A stretch of 64,000 bases of DNA from Patescibacteria group bacterium (GTDB taxonomy: Bacteria > Patescibacteriota > Minisyncoccia > JAHIHE01 > JAGLIN01): positions 14,885 through 78,884 of the forward strand of contig JAHYJV010000001.1 in NCBI GenBank assembly GCA_019428855.1, written 5' to 3'. Shown piece after piece: positions 2,885 through 61,146 of the stretch; position 1 is the stretch's first letter, and every line of letters starts with the position of its first letter. Under the pieces are notes generated by a model. The model was not told the origin of the DNA and did no database searches. It saw nothing but the letters and a program-made list of their open reading frames with translations. The position numbers were made by a program, and so were the translations under genes.

Positions 2885-2973
2885 ATGGATGGTTAATAGT
2901 AATCGATAATAGAAATGATTTCTGCTTTAAGAATAACACTAATTTCTGATAAAGTCCATACTGCGTTATACCC

Positions 2974-4310
2974 CATAAATAATGTTACCGAAACAGGTAG
3001 TGGATAGCTCATAAATGGTGTTACCATAAGGTTATTAATTTTTAACCTAAAAACACCATGAAAACAACAGTAGAACCTTTTGAAAAATATAGGGAAGAAT
3101 ATTGGAAAGCGAACAAAAAGAGGAAGGGGGAAATTTTAAATGTGATGGCAGAATTGACTGCGATGCATAAGAAATCAATTATCCGTAAATTCAAGAAACT
3201 GCAATTCGCTGATCAGGCATCCAAAAAATCTATGCCTGTTAAACAGGGAAGGCCTTGCGTCTATAATTTTGAAATTATTTTTGCTTTAAAACAATTATGG
3301 GAATTGAGTTTAAAATTATGCGGAGAGTTGTTGCATCCGATGATTGGGGAATATTTGGAACAATACAAGCAAAATGGCGACTGGAAATACAGCGAAGAAA
3401 TTGACTCTAAATTATTGATGATGAGCGTTTCCACGATCAAGAGAAAAGTCAGTCAATCTTTTAAAGAAGACAAGAATTCTTTTCGCAAAGGAAAATCAAC
3501 AACAAAATCATCATCTATCAAAACAATTATTCCGATCAGAGACGCTTCTTGGTTTGACGCTAAAATCGGCGAAGGTCAATTAGACACCGTCGTCCATTGC
3601 GGAGACAGTTTGTGCAGAGATATGGCTTATACGCTTAATTACACTGATTTCAAGACTTATTGGATTGGACTGCGAGCACAAATGAATAAAGGACAAATCG
3701 CGACTCAGAAAAGTCTGTTTTACATTCAAGAAAGATTGCCATTTGATTTATTGGAAATACACCCTGACACAGGCAGCGAATTTATTAACTATCATTTGAA
3801 GAATTGCTGCAATGAAATCGGAGTTAAAATGACTCGCTCGCGTCCTAATCATAAAAATGATAATATGTGCGTAGAAGAAAGAAACGGACATATTATCAGG
3901 AAGAAGGTTGGTTACATCAGAATTGATTATCAGGAAGCAGTGAATGTTTTGAATGAGTATTATGAGAATCTCTGTCTGTTTCAAAACCATTTTATAGCCG
4001 TGAGAAGAACCAAAGATAAAGTTAGAATCGGTTCCCGTTATCAAAGAACATTTGAATCAGCCAAAACTCCTTATCAAAGAGTTGTGGAATCCAATGAAAT
4101 TTCTGACGATCAAAAGAAAAAATTAGAATGAATTCATAAAGCTCTTAATATATTTGAACTGCAAGAAAAAATGGATGAATTATTAGAAAAAGTTTGGATT
4201 ATTCAAAAGAAAAAAAGAGGCAAACTATATTAATTCTTCTGCTTGCTTTCGGTAACATACTTATGAATTACACATCTTAATTTCGGTAACATTTACTTAT
4301 GAGCTATAGC
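2974..4310 (+). mobile_element. Insertion sequence with a single DDE transposase and duplicated subterminal inverted repeats
   Basis: Left end carries CATAAATAATGTTACCGAAA (2974-2993) and ATAGCTCATAAATGGTGTTACC (3005-3026). The right end carries their reverse complements TTTCGGTAACATACTTATG (4247-4265) and TTTCGGTAACATTTACTTATGAGCTAT (4281-4307). Confidence 0.6.
3058..4131 (+). CDS. DDE (rve/integrase-core) transposase
   Basis: Catalytic triad candidates DTVVHCGD ... HPDTGSEF ... CVEERNGHIIRK (D-D-E), an N-terminal HTH-like segment, and flanking inverted repeats. Confidence 0.75.
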   Translation: MKTTVEPFEKYREEYWKANKKRKGEILNVMAELTAMHKKSIIRKFKKLQFADQASKKSMPVKQGRPCVYNFEIIFALKQLWELSLKLCGELLHPMIGEYLEQYKQNGDWKYSEEIDSKLLMMSVSTIKRKVSQSFKEDKNSFRKGKSTTKSSSIKTIIPIRDASWFDAKIGEGQLDTVVHCGDSLCRDMAYTLNYTDFKTYWIGLRAQMNKGQIATQKSLFYIQERLPFDLLEIHPDTGSEFINYHLKNCCNEIGVKMTRSRPNHKNDNMCVEERNGHIIRKKVGYIRIDYQEAVNVLNEYYENLCLFQNHFIAVRRTKDKVRIGSRYQRTFESAKTPYQRVVESNEISDDQKKKLE

Positions 4311-4884: not shown

Positions 4885-4953
4885 CAAAAGTATATTACTT
4901 TTTGAATTACGCAACGCAAAATATATTAATTAGTATATCTTAAAAAAATTACC

Positions 4954-5006
4954 GGAGTTCAGGTTTTAACCTGCAATCTAAAATTACAGAATAAAGTCTG
5001 AACTCC
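4954..5006 (+). other. Nested stem-loop (GGAGTTCAG[CAGGTT..AACCTG]...CTGAACTCC) downstream of tRNA-Gly
   Basis: 9-bp outer and 6-bp inner inverted repeats read directly. Function unknown. Confidence 0.3.
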
Positions 5007-5514
5007 AGATATTAGAGTTACATAATTCAATTGTGAACCAAAAAATTATAGTATTATTAGCAATAATTTTAATCGCCATTTTAGCGATAGCTATTATTGC
5101 TATGAAACAAAATCAATCTTAAAACGAAGGAACTAATAAACAGAAACTCCAACAGAAATTTTAGTTAATAAAATCTCAATATGAACGGGCAAAAGCAGAA
5201 GTATCCGATATTTTTCTTATAACAATAATTATGGCACCGAAATAAAACTCGCTTAAGGAAATATCTTAGTAGAAATTATGCAGACAGATCAGAATGTTGA
5301 ATGGAGTATTAAGTTATTTTTGTCATTGCGAGGAGCCGAAGAGACAAAGCAATCTCTCTCATGCATTTCTCATCTCTGTTATTGCGAGGAGTAGCAACGA
5401 TGAAGCAATCTATAGCTGTAACATAAGACTACTTCGCTATGAATACATAACTCGCAATAACAGAAGTATCGGCAGGGTTAATCAATAAAATAGTTAAAAA
5501 TTAAATTAAATAAT

Positions 5515-6401: not shown

Positions 6402-6686
6402 CCCAAATAACTTATAACGCCTAACTTATAACAATCATTTTTGTTATTCTGAAATTGTTTTAAGAATCTTTTATATTTAAAGTTCTGACTTATTCTATTT
6501 AACACTGATCGTCATTTAAGGCGTAAATTCAATTATCTTTTTGTACAACATAATAATTGTGTTTTAGTTTTAATAAAACATGCAAAGATTATGAATTAAA
6601 TTAGTGTAATAGCTGAAAAATCTTAAAAAAAGTTCAAGACGACAGTAATATTTTCCATTTCTAAAAAAATATGCTATTATGTATTT

Positions 6687-7797: not shown

Positions 7798-8084
7798 GAT
7801 TTGTCATTACTTAAATACAAGATTATGGATTCATGGTCTCGCGGGATCTTGGATGGCTAAATAGAATTTTTATTTTATAGAGAAAAGATCCCGTTGTCAT
7901 TCCGTACGCAGAGAAAAGAAGTTGAGGAATAGCTCTTTTTTTCAGTTATCATATAAATACTAATTTTTAAACTGGTCATTACCGCGGAGCAAGAATGACA
8001 ATTAAAGTCTAGGGTTAATAAGAAAGCTGTAAATGACAATCTGAAATATAATAAATAACTTTATTAAAAACTAATTTTAAACAT

Positions 8085-8549
8085 ATGACAAAAAAAAATA
8101 TCAAGAAGGTAGAAAAAATGGAAATTAAGAAGGATATGCCACAGGACCACTACTATACAAATTCAACACAATTACCAGTTAATTATACTGATGATTTATT
8201 TGAAGCAGTTGATTTACAAAATCCTTTGCAAACAAAATATACAGGTGGAACTGTGATGCATGCTTTTTTAGGTGAAAGATTGCCAAGTGGAAAAGAAGCA
8301 AAGCTGTTGGTAAAAAAAATATTTGAAAAATCTCAAATGCCATATCTTTCTCTTACTCCAACTTTTAGTGTTTGCCCAAATCATGGTTATCTTTCTGGTG
8401 AACATTTCACTTGTCCAAAATGCCTAATTGAACAACCTTGCGAAGTTTATTCAAGAGTAGTGGGATATTTGCGTCCTGTTCAACAATGGAATAAGGGAAA
8501 AGTTTCCGAATATGCGAGAAGAAAAGTATTTAAGGCTAAAATAAAATAA
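8085..8549 (+). CDS. Stand-alone NrdD C-terminal domain protein (glycyl-radical loop + Zn ribbon), copy 1
   Basis: YYTNSTQLPVNY...YTGGTVMHAFLGE...LTPTFSVCPNHGY...CPKC...YSRVVGYLRPVQQWNKGKVSEYARRKVF matches the C-terminal ~150 aa of anaerobic ribonucleoside-triphosphate reductase, including the RVxGY glycyl-radical motif. Confidence 0.8.
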   Translation: MTKKNIKKVEKMEIKKDMPQDHYYTNSTQLPVNYTDDLFEAVDLQNPLQTKYTGGTVMHAFLGERLPSGKEAKLLVKKIFEKSQMPYLSLTPTFSVCPNHGYLSGEHFTCPKCLIEQPCEVYSRVVGYLRPVQQWNKGKVSEYARRKVFKAKIK

Positions 8550-8673
8550 GATTGTTCAAGATTAACATTACCGCGGAGCAAGAATGACAATTAAAGTCTA
8601 GGGTTAATAAGAAAGCTGTAAATGACAATCTGAAATATAATAAATAACTTTATTAAAAACTAATTTTAAACAT

Positions 8674-9138
8674 ATGACAAAAAAAAATATCAAGAAGGTA
8701 GAAAAAATGGAAATTAAGAAGGATATGCCACAGGACCACTACTATACAAATTCAACACAATTACCAGTTAATTATACTGATGATTTATTTGAAGCAGTTG
8801 ATTTACAAAATCCTTTGCAAACAAAATATACAGGTGGAACTGTGATGCATGCTTTTTTAGGTGAAAGATTGCCAAGTGGAAAAGAAGCAAAGCTGTTGGT
8901 AAAAAAAATATTTGAAAAATCTCAAATGCCATATCTTTCTCTTACTCCAACTTTTAGTGTTTGCCCAAATCATGGTTATCTTTCTGGTGAACATTTCACT
9001 TGTCCAAAATGCCTAATTGAACAACCTTGCGAAGTTTATTCAAGAGTAGTGGGATATTTGCGTCCTGTTCAACAATGGAATAAGGGAAAAGTTTCCGAAT
9101 ATGCGAGAAGAAAAGTATTTAAGGCTAAAATAAAATAA
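8674..9138 (+). CDS. Stand-alone NrdD C-terminal domain protein, copy 2 (identical)
   Basis: The translation is identical to the ORF at 8085-8549. Confidence 0.8.
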   Translation: MTKKNIKKVEKMEIKKDMPQDHYYTNSTQLPVNYTDDLFEAVDLQNPLQTKYTGGTVMHAFLGERLPSGKEAKLLVKKIFEKSQMPYLSLTPTFSVCPNHGYLSGEHFTCPKCLIEQPCEVYSRVVGYLRPVQQWNKGKVSEYARRKVFKAKIK

Positions 9139-10975: not shown

Positions 10976-11065
10976 GAATTTTAATAGGGCTCAAAATAAA
11001 GACAGTTTTTTGAAGTTGTATCTCAATAGGGTTGTTTAAGTATATTCTTGGTTTATGTAATATTC

Positions 11066-11196
11066 TTGAATTACGAAATACAACATACTTGTCACCCTGA
11101 GCTTGTCGAAGTGTTGAAGTTGCAAGAAATACTACTAATCAAGATGAATTAACTTCGACAAGACCATCATGAGAAATTTAGCTATTTCATAATTCA
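11066..11196. mobile_element. MITE copy A (variant 1) with TIRs TTGAATTACGAAAT / ATTTCATAATTCAA
   Basis: It shares termini with five other copies and its internal sequence with copy B (43322-43454). Confidence 0.55.
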
Positions 11197-11342
11197 AAAT
11201 AATATACAATTTCTAAGGGACTGTCCTTTAATGGGTTGTTCGGTCTAATTTAAATTAACTCAGTAAAATGAGTTATTTTATTGATTCGCACAGGTTGATT
11301 AGTTTCTTTTTCTGTGATATAAATTATATATTGTTCAAATAT

Positions 11343-11413
11343 TCGGGGGTCGTCTAATGGTAGGACGGCAGGTTCTGGTCCTGCTAATCGGGGTTCGAGT
11401 CCCTGCTCCCGAA
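11343..11413 (+). tRNA. tRNA-Gln (anticodon CTG)
   Basis: Acceptor TCGGGGG/CTCCCGA with a U1-A72 pair as in bacterial tRNA-Gln; anticodon stem GCAGG/CCTGC with loop TTCTGGT; T-arm CGGGG-TTCGAGT-CCCTG. Confidence 0.7.
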
Positions 11414-11467
11414 CAAACAAAATATCCGCCTTAGCTAGCGGTTATTTTATTATTATCCCAATATATT

Positions 11468-11598
11468 TAATTCCTTTGAATTACGAAATGCTGTTTTCTT
11501 GTCTTCTCGAATAATATGAGAGATCTTAAAATACGGGAAATGAAACTAAATTTATTTTTAGACCATTCCGTCGCTACCGCTCTTTCGGGATGACAAAG
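11468..11598. mobile_element. MITE copy C (variant 2), truncated and lacking the 3' TIR
   Basis: The 5' TIR and internal sequence match copies D and F; the element ends at ..GGGATGACAAAG. Confidence 0.45.
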
Positions 11599-11656
11599 TA
11601 TGCTGAGTTCAGGTGCTTGATATGTTGGTTTTGATGTAATGTGCAATAGATTCTGA

Positions 11657-11818
11657 ATTACTTTGAATTAGGAAATGCTGTTTTCTTGTCATCTCGAACA
11701 ATATGAGAGATCTTAGAATATGGGAAATTAAAATAGATTTAATTTTAGATCCCTTTGTCGCTACCTCTTTTTCAGGATGACAAAAAAAGAAATGCTAATT
11801 TCGTAATTCAAAGTAATT
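11657..11818. mobile_element. MITE copy D (variant 2), complete with 21-bp TIRs AATTACTTTGAATTAGGAAAT / ATTTCGTAATTCAAAGTAATT
   Basis: Inverted termini read directly; the internal sequence is about 90% identical to C and F. Confidence 0.6.
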
Positions 11819-12116
11819 CATTAGTTCTTGACATTATTTTTTATCAGATATATACTTATGATACTTACTTACCAACTGGTAAGTAAGTAAACAAGAGACA
11901 ATAAAGGAGGAAAAAAGTATATCGAATTTAATTAAAAAAAAAGAGATATTTTTACGAAAAATCTCTTGTATAGTGTTTTTTAATTTAATTTTTCTTCGAA
12001 TAATACGCAGAAAAATTAAGCACAGAGGCTTTCGGAATTTTTTGTAGAAAAAAATATTTTTCTACACCTTTTAAAATTACAATTTTCAATATTAAGCAAT
12101 TATTAAAATATTACAT

Positions 12117-20268: not shown

Positions 20269-20497
20269 CTATGTTATCCCGAGTGACGAAAGGAGGCGAG
20301 GGGTCACTCTCTCTTTAATCACGCTAAACATTATTAAATGTCAATCCCAATTAAGAGCGATTCCTCTATCTTTCTGCCATTCTTCTCGGAATGACAGTTG
20401 AATATTGCTCTTTTTTTGATGACAAAATTTCAAAGTTAAAATAAAAACATGCGAAAAATGAAAAAATAATAAATATTTTTCTACAAAAAAAAGCATA

Positions 20498-22890: not shown

Positions 22891-23100
22891 GTTTACAATT
22901 GCTTTATTTTAAGTAATTTATTGTCATTTCAGATCCCATTTGGTAAGAAATCTCTTAGTGGATTTTTTCAGAAAACATAATAAATATCAGAATAAAATCT
23001 AGAAAATCTTTCAATTATACCTCATTTCGAGATAATAAATAATATAATTTTAGTTTAACATAAATATCGAGAATGATGAATAGAAAATGATGAAATTTCT

Positions 23101-23262
23101 AATTACTTTGAATTACGAAATACCTCCTTTTGTCATTTCGAAATGAGCGATAGCGATTGAGAAATCCCTTCAACAATGTAAATAGCGATAATAATATTGA
23201 AGGGATTCCTCGCTTAAGGCTCAAAATGACACAAAAATTTGCATTTCGCAATTCAAAGTAAT
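23101..23262. mobile_element. MITE copy E (variant 3) with TIRs AATTACTTTGAATTACGAAAT / ATTTCGCAATTCAAAGTAATT
   Basis: It carries an internal 11-bp inverted repeat AATCCCTTCAA/TTGAAGGGATT and ends 60 bp upstream of a GT4 gene. Confidence 0.6.
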
Positions 23263-23322
23263 TATTGACACTCCAGACCATAGGCTTATAATTAAAGCAG
23301 TAAATAACTAATTTGTAAATAT

Positions 23323-25202: not shown

Positions 25203-25713
25203 ATTATAGCCTCCATAACTGGAAAACTAATAATTAAAACAGTTTTTATAATCAATTTTCTGGGATAAAGGTTTTTTTATTTTCTTCCTAATATTTCAAA
25301 GAACTTGTTTAAGTAGTTTTTGTTGTTTTTTATAAAACTTAGTAGGTTAACATAATTGGAAATATGTATAGCTTTACTTTTTGCTGTTTTTGGCTTATTA
25401 TAAAAGAGTATATAAGAATGTTTTACTTCAGTTCATATAAATTAAGTCTGTCATTTAGAACTTGATTCAGTATTATTATATAGCAATGAAATAATTTTAT
25501 AAATCACTGAATGTTTGATAAAAGTGAAAAATCAATAATTAGAAGATATAGAAATAACGGTCGCAGTTAAACTGTAAGCAAACAAATATTGTAAGCTAAA
25601 AAAAAATAAGATGTAATATTCGAAGGATTTTGAATTAAGTTCAGAATGACAAAGATAATGTCAATAATCTAATAAGAAAGTATTATTATATATTAAAATC
25701 TAAAATTAAAATA

Positions 25714-28700
25714 ATGTTTAAAAAGGTAAATCCGAGGCAGAATTTTCCAGAGATGGAGAAGGATGTGATGAAATTTTGGGAAGATAATAAAATATTTGAA
25801 AAATCTGTAGAAAATCAGGGTAATAAAAAAACATATAGCTTTTTTGATGGACCTCCGTTTGCGACAGGGCTTCCTCACTATGGACATGTTGTCGCCAGTT
25901 TGATCAAGGATGTTGTACCACGATTTCGGACAATGAAAGGCAACAAAGTGAACCGTAAATGGGGTTGGGATTGTCATGGTTTGCCGATTGAAAATTTGAT
26001 TGAAAAAGAACACGATATCAAAAATAAGCAGGATATTGAAAAGTGGGGGGTTGATAATTTCAATAATACTTGTCATAATTCTGTTTTGCGTTATGCGGAA
26101 GATTGGAAGAAATTTATTCCACGCATGGGTAGATGGGTTGATATGGAAAATGATTATCGCACGATGGATTGGAAATATACGGAAAGTATTTGGTGGGTTT
26201 TTTCCGAGCTTTTCAAAAAAGGACTGGTTTATGAAGGACACAAAGCGATGCATATTTGCCCAAGGTGTGAGACGACGCTTTCTAATTTTGAAGTGACGCA
26301 GGGATATAAGTATATCACAGATTTATCGGCGACAGTGAAGTTTAAGTTGAAAAAAGAGAGCGGAAAATTGTTAAGGGAAAAGATCCTGAATCAAGTTCAG
26401 GATGACAGTGCAAATCAGGATGAAAAAAATCTCAGGGCGAATTTCTCAAATCATAATGATGAAGATGTTTTTTTGTTAGCTTGGACAACAACGCCGTGGA
26501 CTTTACCGGGAAATGTGGCTTTGGCGGTTAGGGAAGATATTGAGTATATAGAAATTGCTGAAAGCATTAAAGGTAGTATAAGTTCAGATAATAAAACATA
26601 TGAGCTTCCTAGTAATGAAAAATATATCATTGCAAAAAAAATCTTTTCAAAAGAAAGTCAAAAACTTGTGACAGATAATGATTTAAGTCAGGTTTATATT
26701 TACGAAGGAAAGAATTATAAAATAATTAAAGAATTTAAAGGTAAAGATTTAGTCGGTTTGGAATATGAACCTTTGTTTGACTATTATTTTCAAAAAGATG
26801 ATTTGGAAAATAAAGATAACGGTTGGAAAATTTATGCTGGTGATTTTGTTTCCACAGATGAAGGAACAGGAGTTGTTCATATTGCACCAGCATTTGGAGA
26901 TGACGATATGAAGATGGGGCAGAAACATAATTTGCCTTTTGTTCAGCATGTTAAAATGAGCGGGAGATTTACAGAGGAAGTGGTTGATTTCAAGGATAAA
27001 GATGGAGGAAATGCGGAAGTAAAACCTAAGGGAGTGGCTGGCGAAAAAGATGCAAACATGAAGACTGATATTGAAATTATCAAATATTTAGCACATCATA
27101 ATTTTCTGTTTTCAAAGAAAAAATATGAACATAGTTATCCTCATTGTTGGAGATGTGATACGCCGCTTTTGAATTATGCGACGAGTTCTTGGTTTGTGAA
27201 GGTGACGGAAATTAAAGATCAAATGGTGACAAATAACAAACAAGTAAACTGGACTCCGGAATATATTAAGGAGGGGAGATTTGGAAAGTGGCTGGAAGAT
27301 GCGCGCGATTGGGCAATTTCACGAAACCGATTTTGGGGAGCTCCGCTACCAATTTGGAAGTGCTCAGATTGTGAGAATGTTGAAGTTGTGAATTCGATTG
27401 ATGAACTTCGAGAAAAAACAGAGGAGAAAATCACCAAGTTTATTTTTGTCAGACATGGGGAAAGTGAAAGTAATTTAAATAATACGAAAGTAAGTCAAAT
27501 AAATGATTATCCATTGACGAACAAAGGCATTGAACAGTCGAAAAATATTGCAAAAATATTAAGTGACGAAAAGATTGATATCATCATTTCTTCTCCTATA
27601 CTCAGAACAAAACAGACCGCTGATATTATCAATGAGGTTTTAAATATTGAGAGAATTGAAGATGATAGAATCAAGGAATATGAATATGGGTCTTGGAACG
27701 GTCATAGCAGTGAGGAATTGTTTTGTGAAAAGAATGAAATATATCAAAATTATAAAAAGATGGAGGGTCCCGAAGAAAAATGGCATTTTAAATTTGGGGG
27801 AGACGGCGAGTCAAGGCTTGAAGTTGAAAAGAGAGTGCGGATTTTTATGGAAGAAATTAACAAAAAATATGCGGGTCAGAATATATTAGTTGTCAGCCAT
27901 GGCGGAGTCAATGCAATGCTTGTCAAGATTTTTGAGAATTTATCAATCAAGGAAACATACAAACATGAGTTTATCGGTCATGCAGAAAAAAGTGTTTTTT
28001 ATGCAAACAGTGAAGGAAAAAAATTTGACCTTCATAAACCAAATATTGATGGAGTAAAAATTAAATGTTCTGCTTGTGGTAGTGAGGCAAAAATCGTCGG
28101 TGATGTATTTGATTGTTGGTTTGAATCTGGTTCAATGCCTTATGCTCAGTGGCACTATCCATTTGAAAACAAGGATGAATTTGAAAAAAATTTTCCAGCA
28201 GATTTTATTGCGGAAGGGTTGGATCAAACGCGAGGTTGGTTCTATACTTTGATGGTGCTTTCGACGGCACTTTTTGACAAAGCTCCATTTAATAATGTGA
28301 TTGTGAATGGTATGGTCCTAGCCGAAGATGGGCAGAAAATGAGCAAGAGATTACAGAACTATCCCGAGCCTAATTTGGTAATCGAAAAATATGGAGCTGA
28401 TGCTTTGCGATATTATCTTTTGTCTTCACCGGTGATGAAAGGGGAGAGTTTGCGATTTTCAGAAAAGGGAGTTGATGAAGTTCTGAAGAAGTTTATTTTG
28501 ACGCTTTGGAATACCTATTCATTTTTGGTGATGAATGTGGACGAAGAGATCTTTCTTCGCCAAGCTCAGAATGACAAAGTATATTTAAAATCTGAAAATC
28601 TACTTGATCAGTGGATTATTTCAGAATTCAATATTTTAATTGGAGAGGTGAATAAGGAAATGGAAAACTATGATTTGGTGCGTGCCACCAGACCATTGCG

Positions 28701-29550
28701 TGAGTTTATAGAGAAGCTTTCCAATTGGTATGTTCGTCGAAGTAGAAAAAGATTTGCGTCAGAAAATGTTAATGATCGGAATTTTGCCCAGCAAACTTTA
28801 TATTATGTTCTGAGCGAATATGCGAAATTGTTAGCGCCATTTATGCCATTTTTATCTGAAGAAATATATCGAAATTTAACTGACAAAGAGTCTGTTCATC
28901 TGTCGGATTATCCCATTTCTAATCAAGATTTAATCAATGAAAAAGTAAGCGGTGAAATGAATTTTATTAGACAGGTGATTTCGCTGGGCTTGGCGATTCG
29001 TGCCAAGAATGCAATTAAGGTCAGAATGCCTCTGGCTACTTTACAAATTCAAAGTGAAAAATCGAAATTGGAAAATAAAGAATTAATGAATTTGATAAAG
29101 GAAGAATTAAATGTGAAGGCCGTTGAGTTTGTTGAATCTTTGCAAAAAGGATCTACTCAAGAGAATGGAGCAGACGAAGGTGGCTGGGCGATTGCAGAGG
29201 AAGTAGGATTGAAAGTGGCACTTGATTTGAATTTGACGGAAGAATTAAAAAATGAAGGATTGGCCAGAGAGTTAGTTCGACATATTCAAGTGATGAGAAA
29301 AGAGGCAAAATTTAATCGAGAGGATTTGATTTTTATTGAATACAGCTTTATAAAAGAAAGCAAGGGAGTGGAGAAAGCTTTTGAAAGCTGGAAAGATTGT
29401 ATCAAAAAAGAGTGTTTGGCAAAAACTATGAAATTCAAAGAAGTAATTGAAAGTGAAAATTTTGATTCAGTGAAAGAATTGAAGGTGGGGGAGTCTGTGG
29501 TTAAAGTTGGGGTTAAAAAATATAATAAAAAAGAAAGGAAGATTTTATAA
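25714..29550 (+). CDS. ileS: Isoleucyl-tRNA synthetase with an embedded histidine-phosphatase domain
   Basis: HIGH (PHYGHVV), WAISRNRFWGAPLPIW and KMSKS (KMSKR) motifs. At 1278 aa it is about 200 aa longer than typical IleRS because of an insert between the WKCSDC and CSACGS zinc-knuckle halves. Confidence 0.9.
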   Translation: MFKKVNPRQNFPEMEKDVMKFWEDNKIFEKSVENQGNKKTYSFFDGPPFATGLPHYGHVVASLIKDVVPRFRTMKGNKVNRKWGWDCHGLPIENLIEKEHDIKNKQDIEKWGVDNFNNTCHNSVLRYAEDWKKFIPRMGRWVDMENDYRTMDWKYTESIWWVFSELFKKGLVYEGHKAMHICPRCETTLSNFEVTQGYKYITDLSATVKFKLKKESGKLLREKILNQVQDDSANQDEKNLRANFSNHNDEDVFLLAWTTTPWTLPGNVALAVREDIEYIEIAESIKGSISSDNKTYELPSNEKYIIAKKIFSKESQKLVTDNDLSQVYIYEGKNYKIIKEFKGKDLVGLEYEPLFDYYFQKDDLENKDNGWKIYAGDFVSTDEGTGVVHIAPAFGDDDMKMGQKHNLPFVQHVKMSGRFTEEVVDFKDKDGGNAEVKPKGVAGEKDANMKTDIEIIKYLAHHNFLFSKKKYEHSYPHCWRCDTPLLNYATSSWFVKVTEIKDQMVTNNKQVNWTPEYIKEGRFGKWLEDARDWAISRNRFWGAPLPIWKCSDCENVEVVNSIDELREKTEEKITKFIFVRHGESESNLNNTKVSQINDYPLTNKGIEQSKNIAKILSDEKIDIIISSPILRTKQTADIINEVLNIERIEDDRIKEYEYGSWNGHSSEELFCEKNEIYQNYKKMEGPEEKWHFKFGGDGESRLEVEKRVRIFMEEINKKYAGQNILVVSHGGVNAMLVKIFENLSIKETYKHEFIGHAEKSVFYANSEGKKFDLHKPNIDGVKIKCSACGSEAKIVGDVFDCWFESGSMPYAQWHYPFENKDEFEKNFPADFIAEGLDQTRGWFYTLMVLSTALFDKAPFNNVIVNGMVLAEDGQKMSKRLQNYPEPNLVIEKYGADALRYYLLSSPVMKGESLRFSEKGVDEVLKKFILTLWNTYSFLVMNVDEEIFLRQAQNDKVYLKSENLLDQWIISEFNILIGEVNKEMENYDLVRATRPLREFIEKLSNWYVRRSRKRFASENVNDRNFAQQTLYYVLSEYAKLLAPFMPFLSEEIYRNLTDKESVHLSDYPISNQDLINEKVSGEMNFIRQVISLGLAIRAKNAIKVRMPLATLQIQSEKSKLENKELMNLIKEELNVKAVEFVESLQKGSTQENGADEGGWAIAEEVGLKVALDLNLTEELKNEGLARELVRHIQVMRKEAKFNREDLIFIEYSFIKESKGVEKAFESWKDCIKKECLAKTMKFKEVIESENFDSVKELKVGESVVKVGVKKYNKKERKIL
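27433..28020 (+). other. In-frame histidine-phosphatase (phosphoglycerate-mutase superfamily) domain inserted inside ileS
   Basis: FIFVRHGESESN (RHG catalytic His) ... LVVSHGGVNAM (second His motif). It is flanked by the IleRS segments ..PIWKCSDCENVEVVNSIDELREK and DLHKPNIDGVKIKCSACGS..DVFDCWFESGSMP. Confidence 0.7.
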
Positions 29551-41609: not shown

Positions 41610-41716
41610 GGCTCTACACTAATTAGTGTGGTTGATAACTAAAGAAGTGGTAGAACGATATTGATAAATTAACAATTCATGTCACTCCTTTGAAAAATGT
41701 AATCAAAAACTCGTTT
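41610..41716 (+). repeat. Conserved intergenic module R1-R2, copy 1, containing the perfect 14-bp palindrome ACACTAATTAGTGT
   Basis: GGCTCTACACTAATTAGTGTGG...GTGGTAGAA..ATATTGATAAATTAA..CACTCCTTTGAAAAATGTAATCAAAAACTCGTTT. Homologous copies lie at 43257-43504 and 59698-59803. Confidence 0.55.
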
Positions 41717-41928
41717 AAAATTTCATCATAGGTGGCGGTAAAAGCCGAGAAGTCCCTATTAATCGCACTAAGTCTTATCAAACATCAATTCCGAGCTATA
41801 AACGATTCCTTTATGCAGTTTTACTATTATTGGAATGACAGTTAAAAATTATTATATTTTAATCATCATCTGTTTTGAAAAAAGCTAATAAAAAACAGCC
41901 TATTGGCGTTTAATTTAGCGGGAGAGTA

Positions 41929-43182: not shown

Positions 43183-43256
43183 ATATTATTTTAATAAAAA
43201 ATTTAAGATCATTATCGTTATTATACAGTTTTTTAAAACGATTGACAAATAATTTG

Positions 43257-43504
43257 GGCTCTACACTAATAATTGTGGTGAAAAGCTAAAGAAGTGGTAG
43301 AATTATATTGATAAATTATTTTTAAATTACAAAATTCAACATACTTGTCACCCTGAGCCTGTCGAAGGGTTGAAGTTACAAGAAATATTATCAATCAATA
43401 TGAATTTACTTCGACAAGCTCACCATGACAAATTTAGCTATTTCGTAATTCAAAAGAATAAACAATACACCACTCCTTAGAAAAATGATATCAAAAAACT
43501 GTTT
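43257..43504 (+). repeat. R1-R2 module, copy 2, split by the insertion of MITE copy B
   Basis: R1 (43257-43318) and R2 (43471-43504) are contiguous in copy 1 but separated here by about 150 bp carrying the MITE. Confidence 0.55.
43322..43454. mobile_element. MITE copy B (variant 1)
   Basis: AAATTACAAAATTCAACATACTTGTCACCCTGAGCCTGTCGAAGG...CTTCGACAAGCTCACCATGACAAATTTAGCTATTTCGTAATTCAAAAG is about 85% identical to copy A. Confidence 0.55.
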
Positions 43505-43571
43505 TTATATATCAAGTATTTGCTTTTCTCTCAAGCCCCTTGACGCATTTTCTAAAACTATTATAATGTAA

Positions 43572-44926: not shown

Positions 44927-45333
44927 TTAGTTTGAATTAAGAAATATTAATTATCATTTCGTGGGAGTGATAACGATGAGAAATCTATCTATAAAATTAA
45001 GCTTACTCAGCCTACTTTCAGATTTCTCGATCATATCTCACTTCGAGATGACAGTGAATATATATTTTTTCAATAAAATAAAAAAAGACGAAAAGTTTTA
45101 TGTTTAACTTTCCGACTGCAACATTTATCCTTTTTTTGTTTTCCGTACCCAATTATAGGTGCAGTCAAGATTGCATGTAGTGCCATATAAATTGTACTTA
45201 TGACAATACTAAGAATAATAATGTTTGGTATTTCTATAAGTAAAATGTTTTCGGTAAAATGGAAAAAATAAAATATGTCAGATGATTAACAGAAAAAAGA
45301 AGCCTTAAATAATTTAATAAATAATAAAAAAAT

Positions 45334-59367: not shown

Positions 59368-59697
59368 TTGACATAAGTCTGTTTATTAGAAAAAAGGTTC
59401 TTTGTCAAAATTTGTGGTGGTTAAGCATCGAAGTGGAACAAATGCTGATATAACCTTGGCTATATAATTTTGTCTGAAAGAAATGAGTAATTTAATAGTT
59501 CTTCTGGCTGGAGCGATAGCGGAGTGGAGTTTTACTGAAAACGCCGTGCTGTGAAATTACGGTCAAATTTTAGCTCTCGTAACATTTGACACTCCTGGAA
59601 ATTTGATTGTGCTTAGTTGGGGATTAATATCGGTAAAGATTTAGTAAGTCAAAGAGAGACTACTAATATCCTCTCGTCACTCTAGACAACATTTGAA

Positions 59698-59803
59698 AAC
59701 AGTTTTTTGATATCATTTTTCACAGGAGTGGTGGGAATTGTTAATTTATCAATATACTTCTTTTATTTTTTCATCTATCCACTATAATAATTAGTGTAGA
59801 GCC
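59698..59803 (-). repeat. R1-R2 module, copy 3 (reverse orientation)
   Basis: The reverse complement reads GGCTCTACACTAATTATTATAGTGG...ATATTGATAAATTAACAATTCCCACCACTCCTGTGAAAAATGATATCAAAAAACTGTT. Confidence 0.5.
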
Positions 59804-59844
59804 AAAAGAAATTGAATTTTTTATGTTAGTATTTAATGAAGTTT

Positions 59845-59995
59845 TTTGAATTACGAAATGAGCATTTCTTTTTTTGTCATCCCGAAAGAGCGGTAGCGAC
59901 GAAGGGATCTAAAAGTAAAGCTAGTTTCATTTCCCGTATTTTAAGATCTCTCATATTGTTCGAGATGACAAGAAAACAGCATTTCGTAATTCAAA
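59845..59995. mobile_element. MITE copy F (variant 2, reverse orientation relative to C/D)
   Basis: TTTTTGAATTACGAAATG....ATTTCGTAATTCAAAGG. It ends 30 bp upstream of a GT4 gene. Confidence 0.6.
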
Positions 59996-60024
59996 GGAAG
60001 TTATAAAATTAACTATATTAATGT

Positions 60025-61146
60025 ATGAAAATTGGAATAGATGCTAGAAGTCTTGAGAATTCAAAAACTGGAGTTGGCAGATATCTGTCTAACTTATTGA
60101 AATTTTGGAAGAATGAAAAGAGTATCCAGTTTGTTCTTTATTTTAAGGATCAAATTCCCAAAGAAGAGCTCGCTGATACTGATAATTTTGAAAAAGTGTT
60201 GTTGAAAAATCCACTTGGTTTTTCGAGTAATTTTTTCTTTCAGCATTTTTTGTTGCCCAATCGTCTTAAAAAAGATAAAATTGATTATTTCTTTTCTCCA
60301 TTTTATCTCAAGCCGATTTATTGTCCCGTAAAATCATCTATAGTCCTTCATGATATTTCTTATGAAGCTCATCCAGAGTGGTTTGATTTTAAAAGTCAAT
60401 TTGTCTTAAGAATGCTTTCAAGATATTCTGCTAAAACAGCACAGAGAATATTTACTGTTTCGTTTTATAGTAAAAAGGAGATTATTAAATACTACGGTAC
60501 TGATTCTGAAAAAATTACAGTGACTAATTTAGCTCCCGATGATAGTTTTTCAAAAATTGAGGATTTGGATAAAATAAAAACCATGAAAAAAAAATATGGC
60601 ATTGTAAAGAAATTTATTTTTTGCATTGGAACAATTTTTTCTAGAAGACATATCAGTGAAATTATTGAGGCATTTGAAAAGATTTCGGATAAAAGCTTGG
60701 AATACCAACTTTTAATTGTCGGAAAAAACGTGACGCATCCTTTTGTTGATATTGATAAAAAAATAGAGCTAATCAATCAGAATATTAAAAATAATAGCAT
60801 AATCCATCTTAATTCCGTTTCTGAGCAGGAATTAATGGCTTTGTATAGCTCTTGTGATTTTGTCATTTATCTCTCTGATTATGAGGGATTTGGTTTACCT
60901 GTGATTGAAGCTCAGTTTTTTGGCAAAGCTCTGCTTACAAGCTATAATACATCGTTGATTGAAGTAGGGGGAAATTCAGTTGAATTTGTGAAGGAAAACA
61001 CGACAGAAGAAATTCAGAGATCCATGGAGAAAGTTATTTTTAATGAAGATTACAAGGGCCAGCTAGTGCAAAAGGGTGCTGAGAATTTAAAAAGGTTTAG
61101 TTGGGAGAAGTCTGCAATGGAGACACTGAATAAGTTATTATATTGA
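60025..61146 (+). CDS. Glycosyltransferase family 4
   Basis: C-terminal EGFGLPVIEAQFFGKALL motif. Paralog of 23323-24480. Confidence 0.8.
   Translation: MKIGIDARSLENSKTGVGRYLSNLLKFWKNEKSIQFVLYFKDQIPKEELADTDNFEKVLLKNPLGFSSNFFFQHFLLPNRLKKDKIDYFFSPFYLKPIYCPVKSSIVLHDISYEAHPEWFDFKSQFVLRMLSRYSAKTAQRIFTVSFYSKKEIIKYYGTDSEKITVTNLAPDDSFSKIEDLDKIKTMKKKYGIVKKFIFCIGTIFSRRHISEIIEAFEKISDKSLEYQLLIVGKNVTHPFVDIDKKIELINQNIKNNSIIHLNSVSEQELMALYSSCDFVIYLSDYEGFGLPVIEAQFFGKALLTSYNTSLIEVGGNSVEFVKENTTEEIQRSMEKVIFNEDYKGQLVQKGAENLKRFSWEKSAMETLNKLLY

Follow-up and report, generated by a model that had tools for sequence, protein, structure and literature searches.

The window analyzed here, a 64-kb stretch of a Patescibacteria (CPR) genome, has ~32% G+C and is rich in housekeeping genes, including gyrB, prfA, ftsEX, ileS, cysS, dnaB, dnaK/grpE/hrcA, rny, smpB, tmRNA, and three tRNAs. 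The ileS product (25714-29550; 1,278 aa) contains a complete histidine-phosphatase domain (His_Phos_1, residues 577-771) inside its catalytic core. A 300-bp tandem duplication (7955-8254 and 8544-8843; 97% identity, 589-bp spacing) carries two 154-aa ORFs that both match only the C-terminal glycyl-radical end of the anaerobic ribonucleotide reductase NrdD; relatives possess one such gene there. Dispersed between the genes are eight copies of a short element, equivalent to ~1 per 8 kb and ~1.8% of the DNA. An initial annotation had described six of these (A-F) as miniature transposable elements (MITEs) that are non-coding, internally palindromic, and bounded by terminal inverted repeats (TIRs). 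All six exist, and two degenerate copies (G and H) have to be added to that count. Copies A-F measure 124-153 bp and are all intergenic; copy E is overlapped only by a spurious 87-aa ORF. Long-hairpin folding of all copies yields z-scores of -2.9 to -5.0 relative to shuffled controls, in agreement with the palindromic character noted before.

Interior clustering and alignment of the window copies reproduced the three core types proposed initially, i.e., A with B, C with D and F, and E alone. Strand is assigned to C, D, and F only. Copy A (11064-11199; 136 bp, core type 1) lies between ftsX and tRNA-Gln, is bounded by the TIRs TCTTGAATTACGAAAT and ATTTCATAATTCAAAA, and is flanked by the perfect 6-bp direct repeat TAATAT (11058-11063 and 11200-11205). 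Copy B (43320-43455; 136 bp, core type 1), 86% identical to A, is located between corA (-) and hrcA (+); its left TIR contains two mismatches and its target-site duplication (TSD) is degenerate (AAATTAT/GAATAAA). Copy C (11474 to ~11597, plus strand, core type 2) is positioned downstream of tRNA-Gln with the left TIR CTTTGAATTACGAAAT and no right TIR, in line with the 3′-truncation annotated for it, and shows 86% identity to D and 90% complementarity to F. Copy D (11661-11813, plus strand; 153 bp, core type 2) has the TIRs CTTTGAATTAGGAAAT and ATTTCGTAATTCAAAG and precedes a tetR-family gene. Its flanks, GAATTA and TAATTC, form a degenerate direct repeat that agrees at four of six positions, and they resemble the target TAATTA; a strong promoter-like TTGACA-17-TATACT sequence starts at 11828, directly beside the element. 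The third member of core type 2, copy F (59844-59996, minus strand; 153 bp), is inverted relative to C and D, with 87-90% complementarity to D and C, and is found upstream of a second GT4 gene. Both its TIRs match the motif exactly and its 6-bp TSD, GAAGTT, is perfect (59838-59843 and 59997-60002).

Copy E (23106-23258; 153 bp, core type 3) separates smpB (-) from a GT4 glycosyltransferase gene (+). A perfect 6-bp TSD, TAATTA, surrounds it (23100-23105 and 23259-23264), and a strong promoter-like sequence with a 12/12 consensus match starts at 23265, abutting the element. Copies of 94-95% identity to E were found in another Patescibacteria MAG (L058 and L110), where the flanks are unrelated. 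Degenerate copy G (4900-5032) directly follows tRNA-Gly; its left end TTGAATTACGCAAC (two mismatches) and right end ACATAATTCAATTG (three mismatches) are 129 bp apart and enclose a palindromic core. The end motif at ~4897 that had been taken for a possible solo TIR is thus indeed present, but constitutes the left end of this whole degenerate element. Copy H lies between grpE and hsp20 at ~44930-45075, an approximate coordinate as its right end is eroded, with the left end GTTTGAATTAAGAAAT (one mismatch) preceded by TAATTA and a core comprising two inverted GTCAT-type hairpin units.

At up to two mismatches, the end motif TTGAATTACGAAAT occurs 21 times in the 64-kb window compared with 3.0 ± 1.6 matches (maximum 9) in shuffled sequences. 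Inverted pairs of this motif at 40-220 bp spacing delimit six distinct elements (eight raw pairs), compared with 0.08 raw pairs in shuffles. The MITE TIR spans ~18 bp and consists of a 4-nt extension C[C/T]TT, the core GAATTACGAAAT, and 1-2 further nucleotides (G/A). Ends aligned from 110 copies in other genomes show the same order of C[C/T][T/G][T/C], GAATTACGAAAT, and 1-2 bases, followed by a T-rich stretch. The inverted repeats claimed initially are real; however, their outer AATTAC...GTAATT is restricted to D and E and, partly, C, and represents the duplicated TAATTA-like target instead of TIR sequence.

The outermost four nucleotides vary by subfamily yet are complementary between both ends of each copy: ctgc...gcag in L014, L029, and L030, cccc...gggg in L063, L083, and L094, ctgt...acag in L009 and L080, and cctt...aagg or cttt...aaag in most others. 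The pattern points either to sub-lineages of the transposase that match the subfamilies or to a requirement that the two ends pair. Some elements are minimal, being 45-47 bp long and barely more than two TIRs and a short loop (L003 2021-2065, L018 2361-2407, and L068 7355-7401), and on the basis of these the TIR ends alone may be sufficient for mobility.

The initial annotation had suggested looking for target-site duplications, for presence or absence of the copies in related genomes, for their multiplicity, and for a parent transposase, and each of these searches gave a result in favor of mobility. In the window, perfect 6-bp duplications flank A, E, and F, and their sequence differs from copy to copy (TAATAT, TAATTA, and GAAGTT, respectively). 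Among the 110 copies from other genomes, a perfect direct repeat is placed just outside the 4-nt extension, comprising 7 bp in 34 and 6 bp in 20 of them, with a preference for T at position -11 and A at -5, the first and last target positions. An independent metagenome set gave similar repeats (7 bp perfect in 23/80, 6 bp in 10/80).

Two kinds of empty site were identified. Within the window, copy B splits a ~110-bp intergenic repeat (43246-43318 and 43468-43510, plus strand), whose other two copies (41610-41716, plus strand; 59691-59814, minus strand) are uninterrupted and provide an empty paralogous site, GATAAATTA/ACAATTC. The repeat, 77-91% identical between copies, is common to three intergenic regions: it precedes cysS and corA by ~65 bp each and is also located upstream of the GT4 gene at 60025. 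It contains the perfect palindrome ACACTAATTAGTGT and may represent a shared promoter or operator module; copy F sits between the third repeat copy and its gene. In other genomes, the orthologous ftsX-tRNA-Gln locus was compared in four related metagenomic genomes (L119-L122; FtsX 78-86% identity) that keep the order ftsE-ftsX-tRNA-Gln. Their spacers are short, with none of the copies A, C, and D in them. By label, the nearest relatives in FtsX belong to Pacebacteria/Paceibacterota. Exact-protein look-ups with HU and SmpB for strain variants returned no match. In one relative (L123 3880-6700 and L124 989-3804), the tRNA-Gln downstream of ftsX is followed by genes for a large serine recombinase and a Rep-like protein, probably a small integrated element that uses the tRNA-Gln region.

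The elements are present in very large numbers, in individual genomes as well as across genomes. With one genome taken for each species, the exact pattern GAATTACGAAAT-N95-125-ATTTCGTAATTC retrieved at least 112 loci. Among the matches listed, nearly all belong to Patescibacteria, with G+C contents from 28 to 57% and many classes, including Saccharibacteria, Paceibacteria, Magasanik-, Kuenen-, Vogel-, Ryan-, and Roizmanbacteria as well as Gottesman-, Falkow-, Lipton-, Taylor-, Azam-, and Doudnabacteria. Three matches on contigs labeled Bacteroidales, Armatimonadetes, and Thermoguttaceae (L001, L051, and L057) were rejected as chance matches that consist of GAATTAC heptamer arrays or unrelated palindromes. 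Elements outside the window range from 45 to 330 bp, and the 123 interiors collected fall into 55 mutually unrelated clusters. Single MAGs contain near-identical copies with different flanks, e.g., six in CAYVXQ01, pointing at recent activity; recent bursts are also seen in JAUYJM01 and JAHJSK01. A scan of 2.9 million viral contigs yielded no copy. Neither this family nor any MITE of CPR was found described in the searchable literature outside subscription journals and ISfinder, whether looked for by TIR sequence, by hairpin-unit sequence, or by MITEs and IS elements in CPR.

A full-length partner with identical TIRs, in the form of a ~1.0-kb IS982-family element, exists in metagenomes. Scanning metagenomes with the single end CCTTGAATTACGAAATG identified 120 loci, in which paired ends mostly bound short elements, the spacing of the 12-nt motif being 140-180 bp at its mode within a range of 20-330 bp. 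Six of these loci instead hold 986-1016-bp elements bounded by (A)CCTTGAATTACGAAATG with one ORF of 270-284 aa. Their ORFs match PF13612 (DDE_Tnp_1_3) at E-values of 1e-27 to 1e-34, and two of four proteins exceed the 130-bit cut-off of NF033520 “IS982 family transposase” (135.3 and 138.4 bits), the other two scoring 111-121 bits, below this cut-off. Conserved transposase motifs are DSTD, ADAGY, and IEL. Perfect 7-bp duplications (TTGTAGA and TGCCCGA) flank two of the six elements. The six transposases are 47-59% identical to one another, and the element ends are identical. At E <= 1e-20, the transposase clade comprises at least 2,560 protein clusters, mostly of 267 aa on ~1.0-kb contigs. A further 30 loci from three other transposase clusters contain 994-1021-bp elements, both ends intact in most, with the ends C[TC][CT]TGAATTACGAAAC, whose core is that of the MITE ends, and TAATTA-like flanks. 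Many full-length copies are placed on short, probably chimeric metagenomic contigs, and their duplications are therefore often unreadable. In 75% of the aligned MITE ends, the base preceding CCTT is A; in window copies A and F, however, it is part of the target duplication, which leaves a start with “AC” ambiguous.

As stated in the initial annotation, the parent is absent from the window: neither a full-length copy nor an IS982-like coding remnant was detected in these 64 kb or in the 112 MITE-bearing loci. TIR pairs located 0.3-5 kb apart in the 112 genome loci enclose only ordinary genes, and clustering of the ORFs that neighbor MITEs revealed no recurrent transposase. When compared with the interiors of nine full-length elements, the MITE interiors showed no detectable shared sequence, so the MITEs are not simple deletion derivatives.

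The insertion sequence that the window does contain (~2958-4309; a 357-aa ORF, 391 aa in homologs) is an unrelated rve-type element with faint rve, IS3, and IS481 matches. Its ~30-bp ends, ...TAAATAATGTTACCGAA, are unlike the MITE TIRs; in these ends, CGTTATACCCCATAAATAATGTTACCGAAA, the binding motif is repeated once more internally, and the target duplication is likely TACTG. The family is large in CPR, with 5-7-bp duplications and 1,718 protein clusters that come mostly from contigs of ~1.35 kb, and seems to be an uncharacterized CPR IS group. As a candidate parent of the MITEs it was rejected, the ends of its homologs being different and the family HMM giving no match in the 112 MITE-bearing loci.

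The interiors are apparently structured. A hairpin unit of the form GTC-AT[TC]NN...loop...complement, in one or two inverted copies, is present in 43 of the 123 interiors, compared with 7.5 in shuffles. In the window this dispersed unit, TGTCAT-xyz-GAR...loop...z′y′x′-ATC, occurs alone, in inverted pairs, and inside the MITE interiors of C, D, E, F, and H, with a 5-bp stem that co-varies between copies (ATTGC, ATTCC, ATTCT, ATCCC, ATCTC, and ATTTC). It is found alone at a dozen window places. Positions of the repeat are 5322-5357, 5378-5413, ~5428-5462(-), 6443-6471, 7896-7934, ~20360-20395(-), 22923-22955, ~25620-25651(-), and ~41805-41839(-), with two more inside the coding sequence of ileS, near 26406(-) and 28576(-). 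At another locus (L106), a small GIY-YIG nuclease ORF has such a unit as its 3′ end. Two interior families, X and Y, recur across different CPR classes and combine invariant unpaired stretches with compensated stems. Family X shows compensatory stem changes in 17 of 54 pairs and a G:U versus A:C asymmetry of ~21 versus 10 that one column dominates. For family Y the multi-hairpin reading was made by eye; RNAalifold returned no inner structure, owing to alignment problems. The orientation of X and Y elements relative to neighboring genes is random. Apart from tRNA, tmRNA, and RNase P, Rfam 15, searched at gathering and E-value thresholds, gave nothing but miRNA-hairpin noise below threshold. The X and Y structures may have arisen by concerted evolution of the palindrome arms or, alternatively, by selection on DNA or RNA structure; that several interior types preserve their loops and compensate their stems over distant lineages is unexpected for a purely selfish, neutral interior.

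Could the elements be structured-RNA genes or cis-elements, with an RNA that includes the conserved outer stem and whose function drives the spread? The conservation of X and Y over CPR classes, with the compensated pairs of X, and the folding of all copies well below shuffled controls speak for such a function. It is nevertheless improbable, as ~55 unrelated interiors stand behind one invariant end, gene-relative orientation is random, no Rfam family matches beyond generic miRNA-hairpin noise, and concerted evolution of palindrome arms can mimic covariation; TSDs and a transposase-bearing parent moreover account for the spread without any RNA. Even less credit is due to a system of REP/REPIN-type palindrome doublets mobilized not by a DDE enzyme but by a domesticated Y1 (RAYT) transposase. 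The hairpin unit, in 43 of 123 interiors and alone in the window, does recall REP singlets and REPIN doublets. However, insertions of that kind lack TSDs and long TIRs, both of which are present here, the window contains no Y1 or RAYT gene, and the outer ends match the IS982-type element exactly, so that this explanation would be applicable to the inner hairpin units only.

The invariance of GAATTACGAAAT from 28 to 57% G+C across many CPR classes would also fit a host-factor site or a DNA-uptake signal arranged in inverted pairs, as DUS pairs are in Neisseria terminators, rather than a transposon end. Such signals come without site-specific duplications and do not bound a transposase gene; the density here is ~1 per 8 kb and not ~1 per kb, and the 2.9 million viral contigs yielded no copy, which makes this explanation very unlikely as well. 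Pieces of a segmental duplication, a possibility raised in the initial annotation itself as one that would speak against mobility, might be suspected from the paralogous glycosyltransferase genes downstream of E and F, and mobilization by the window IS at ~2958-4309 from its ends, which carry TTACCGAAA, reminiscent of TTACGAAAT. Taken together, these two ideas are the least probable of all. E and F differ in their interiors, similarity among window copies stops at the element ends, and the flanks are not colinear, so flank comparisons refute a segmental duplication, while the IS encodes a distant rve-type DDE enzyme, has different ~30-bp ends, and belongs to a family absent from the 112 MITE-bearing loci.

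We therefore consider the elements to be non-autonomous DNA transposons (MITEs) of an IS982-family IS clade abundant in Patescibacteria, with a probability of roughly 90%. Each MITE consists of a 20-330-bp non-coding, hairpin-forming body between TIRs identical to the ends of the ~1.0-kb elements that encode a 267-284-aa DDE transposase. A full-length copy at another place in the genome, now or once present, would provide the IS982-type transposase in trans; the enzyme would bind both ~18-bp TIRs of the short element and insert it at AT-rich T-N5-A or TAATTA-like sites via a 6-7-bp staggered cut, repair of which would leave the flanking direct repeats. Observed directly are the anatomy of the elements, their TSDs, empty sites, and multiplicity, and full-length elements with matching ends; mobilization of the window copies by this enzyme and a source copy in this particular genome are inferred. 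A more speculative extension, to which we assign a low probability although a clearly higher one than to any of the rival explanations, holds that the IS982-type end pair serves as a generic vehicle throughout CPR, its interiors being independent structured modules kept by selection rather than relics of the parent IS, and that the MITE population fixes transposase-TIR recognition. If this were true, the modules would be the multi-hairpin families and the GTCAT units that also live outside MITEs, acting for instance as small RNAs, protein-binding sites, or transposition enhancers, and recognition would be held constant by a huge MITE population while the transposases diverge to ~50% identity.

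Insertions directly against promoters (D and E) and within the shared regulatory repeat (B) may alter gene expression. It is also possible, judging from the sequence, that the outward TTCAAA of the element end pairs with a downstream -10 element, as at F. CPR/Patescibacteria genomes, of ~1 Mb, are usually called streamlined, an image with which ~1.8% of MITE DNA in the window contrasts. The 12-nt end provides a sequence tag for a transposon system common to many CPR classes, useful for following strain insertion polymorphism, for accounting for contig breaks in CPR assemblies, and for recognizing mis-binned contigs, and a 267-aa transposase with defined 18-bp ends is a candidate genetic tool for organisms that have almost none. 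The family leaves the understanding of how MITEs work unchanged; its points of interest are the superphylum-wide invariance of the ends, the diverse and apparently structured interiors, and this value as tag and tool for CPR genomes.

Several known systems offer a comparison. Bacterial MITEs are represented by Correia/NEMIS in Neisseria, RUP in Streptococcus pneumoniae (from IS630-Spn1), and ERIC/IRU in enterobacteria. These are intergenic hairpins without coding capacity, 100-160 bp long, that possess TIRs and duplicate their target; they are multi-copy, often located beside promoters, and mobilized in trans. The CPR elements are likewise short intergenic hairpins with TIRs and TSDs. However, Correia and RUP duplicate TA, whereas 6-7 bp are duplicated here, and each of these families is limited to a single genus or family and has one or few interior types, in contrast to a superphylum-wide CPR family with dozens of unrelated interiors. 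REP/REPIN elements are recognized by the absence of target duplication, by short palindromes with a conserved 5′ tetranucleotide, and by a linked RAYT gene. The inner GTCAT-type units resemble them as single units or inverted doublets with co-varying stems, but the TIR-bounded CPR element differs in having TSDs and a DDE parent, and no RAYT was seen.

On the side of the partner, IS982-family members are characterized in ISfinder by a length of ~1 kb, a single ORF, a 3-9-bp duplication, and ends beginning with AC, examples being IS982 of Lactococcus and ISAba4 and ISAba825 of Acinetobacter. The full-length partners resemble them in their length of ~1.0 kb, one ORF of ~267 aa, matches to PF13612/PF01609 and NF033520, and short TIRs; the 3-9-bp range includes the 6-7-bp duplications seen here. 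In the plasmid collection, the nearest curated relative is ISAba4, whose transposase is ~34% identical to the partner proteins over 76% of their length; its TIR sequence differs, in a plasmid copy where the ISAba4 ends are not cleanly readable. As further differences, the partner clade is centered on Patescibacteria and retains one invariant TIR despite transposases at 47-59% identity. MITE and IS982 family are both known kinds, and the relationship between them is that of a textbook MITE and its IS.
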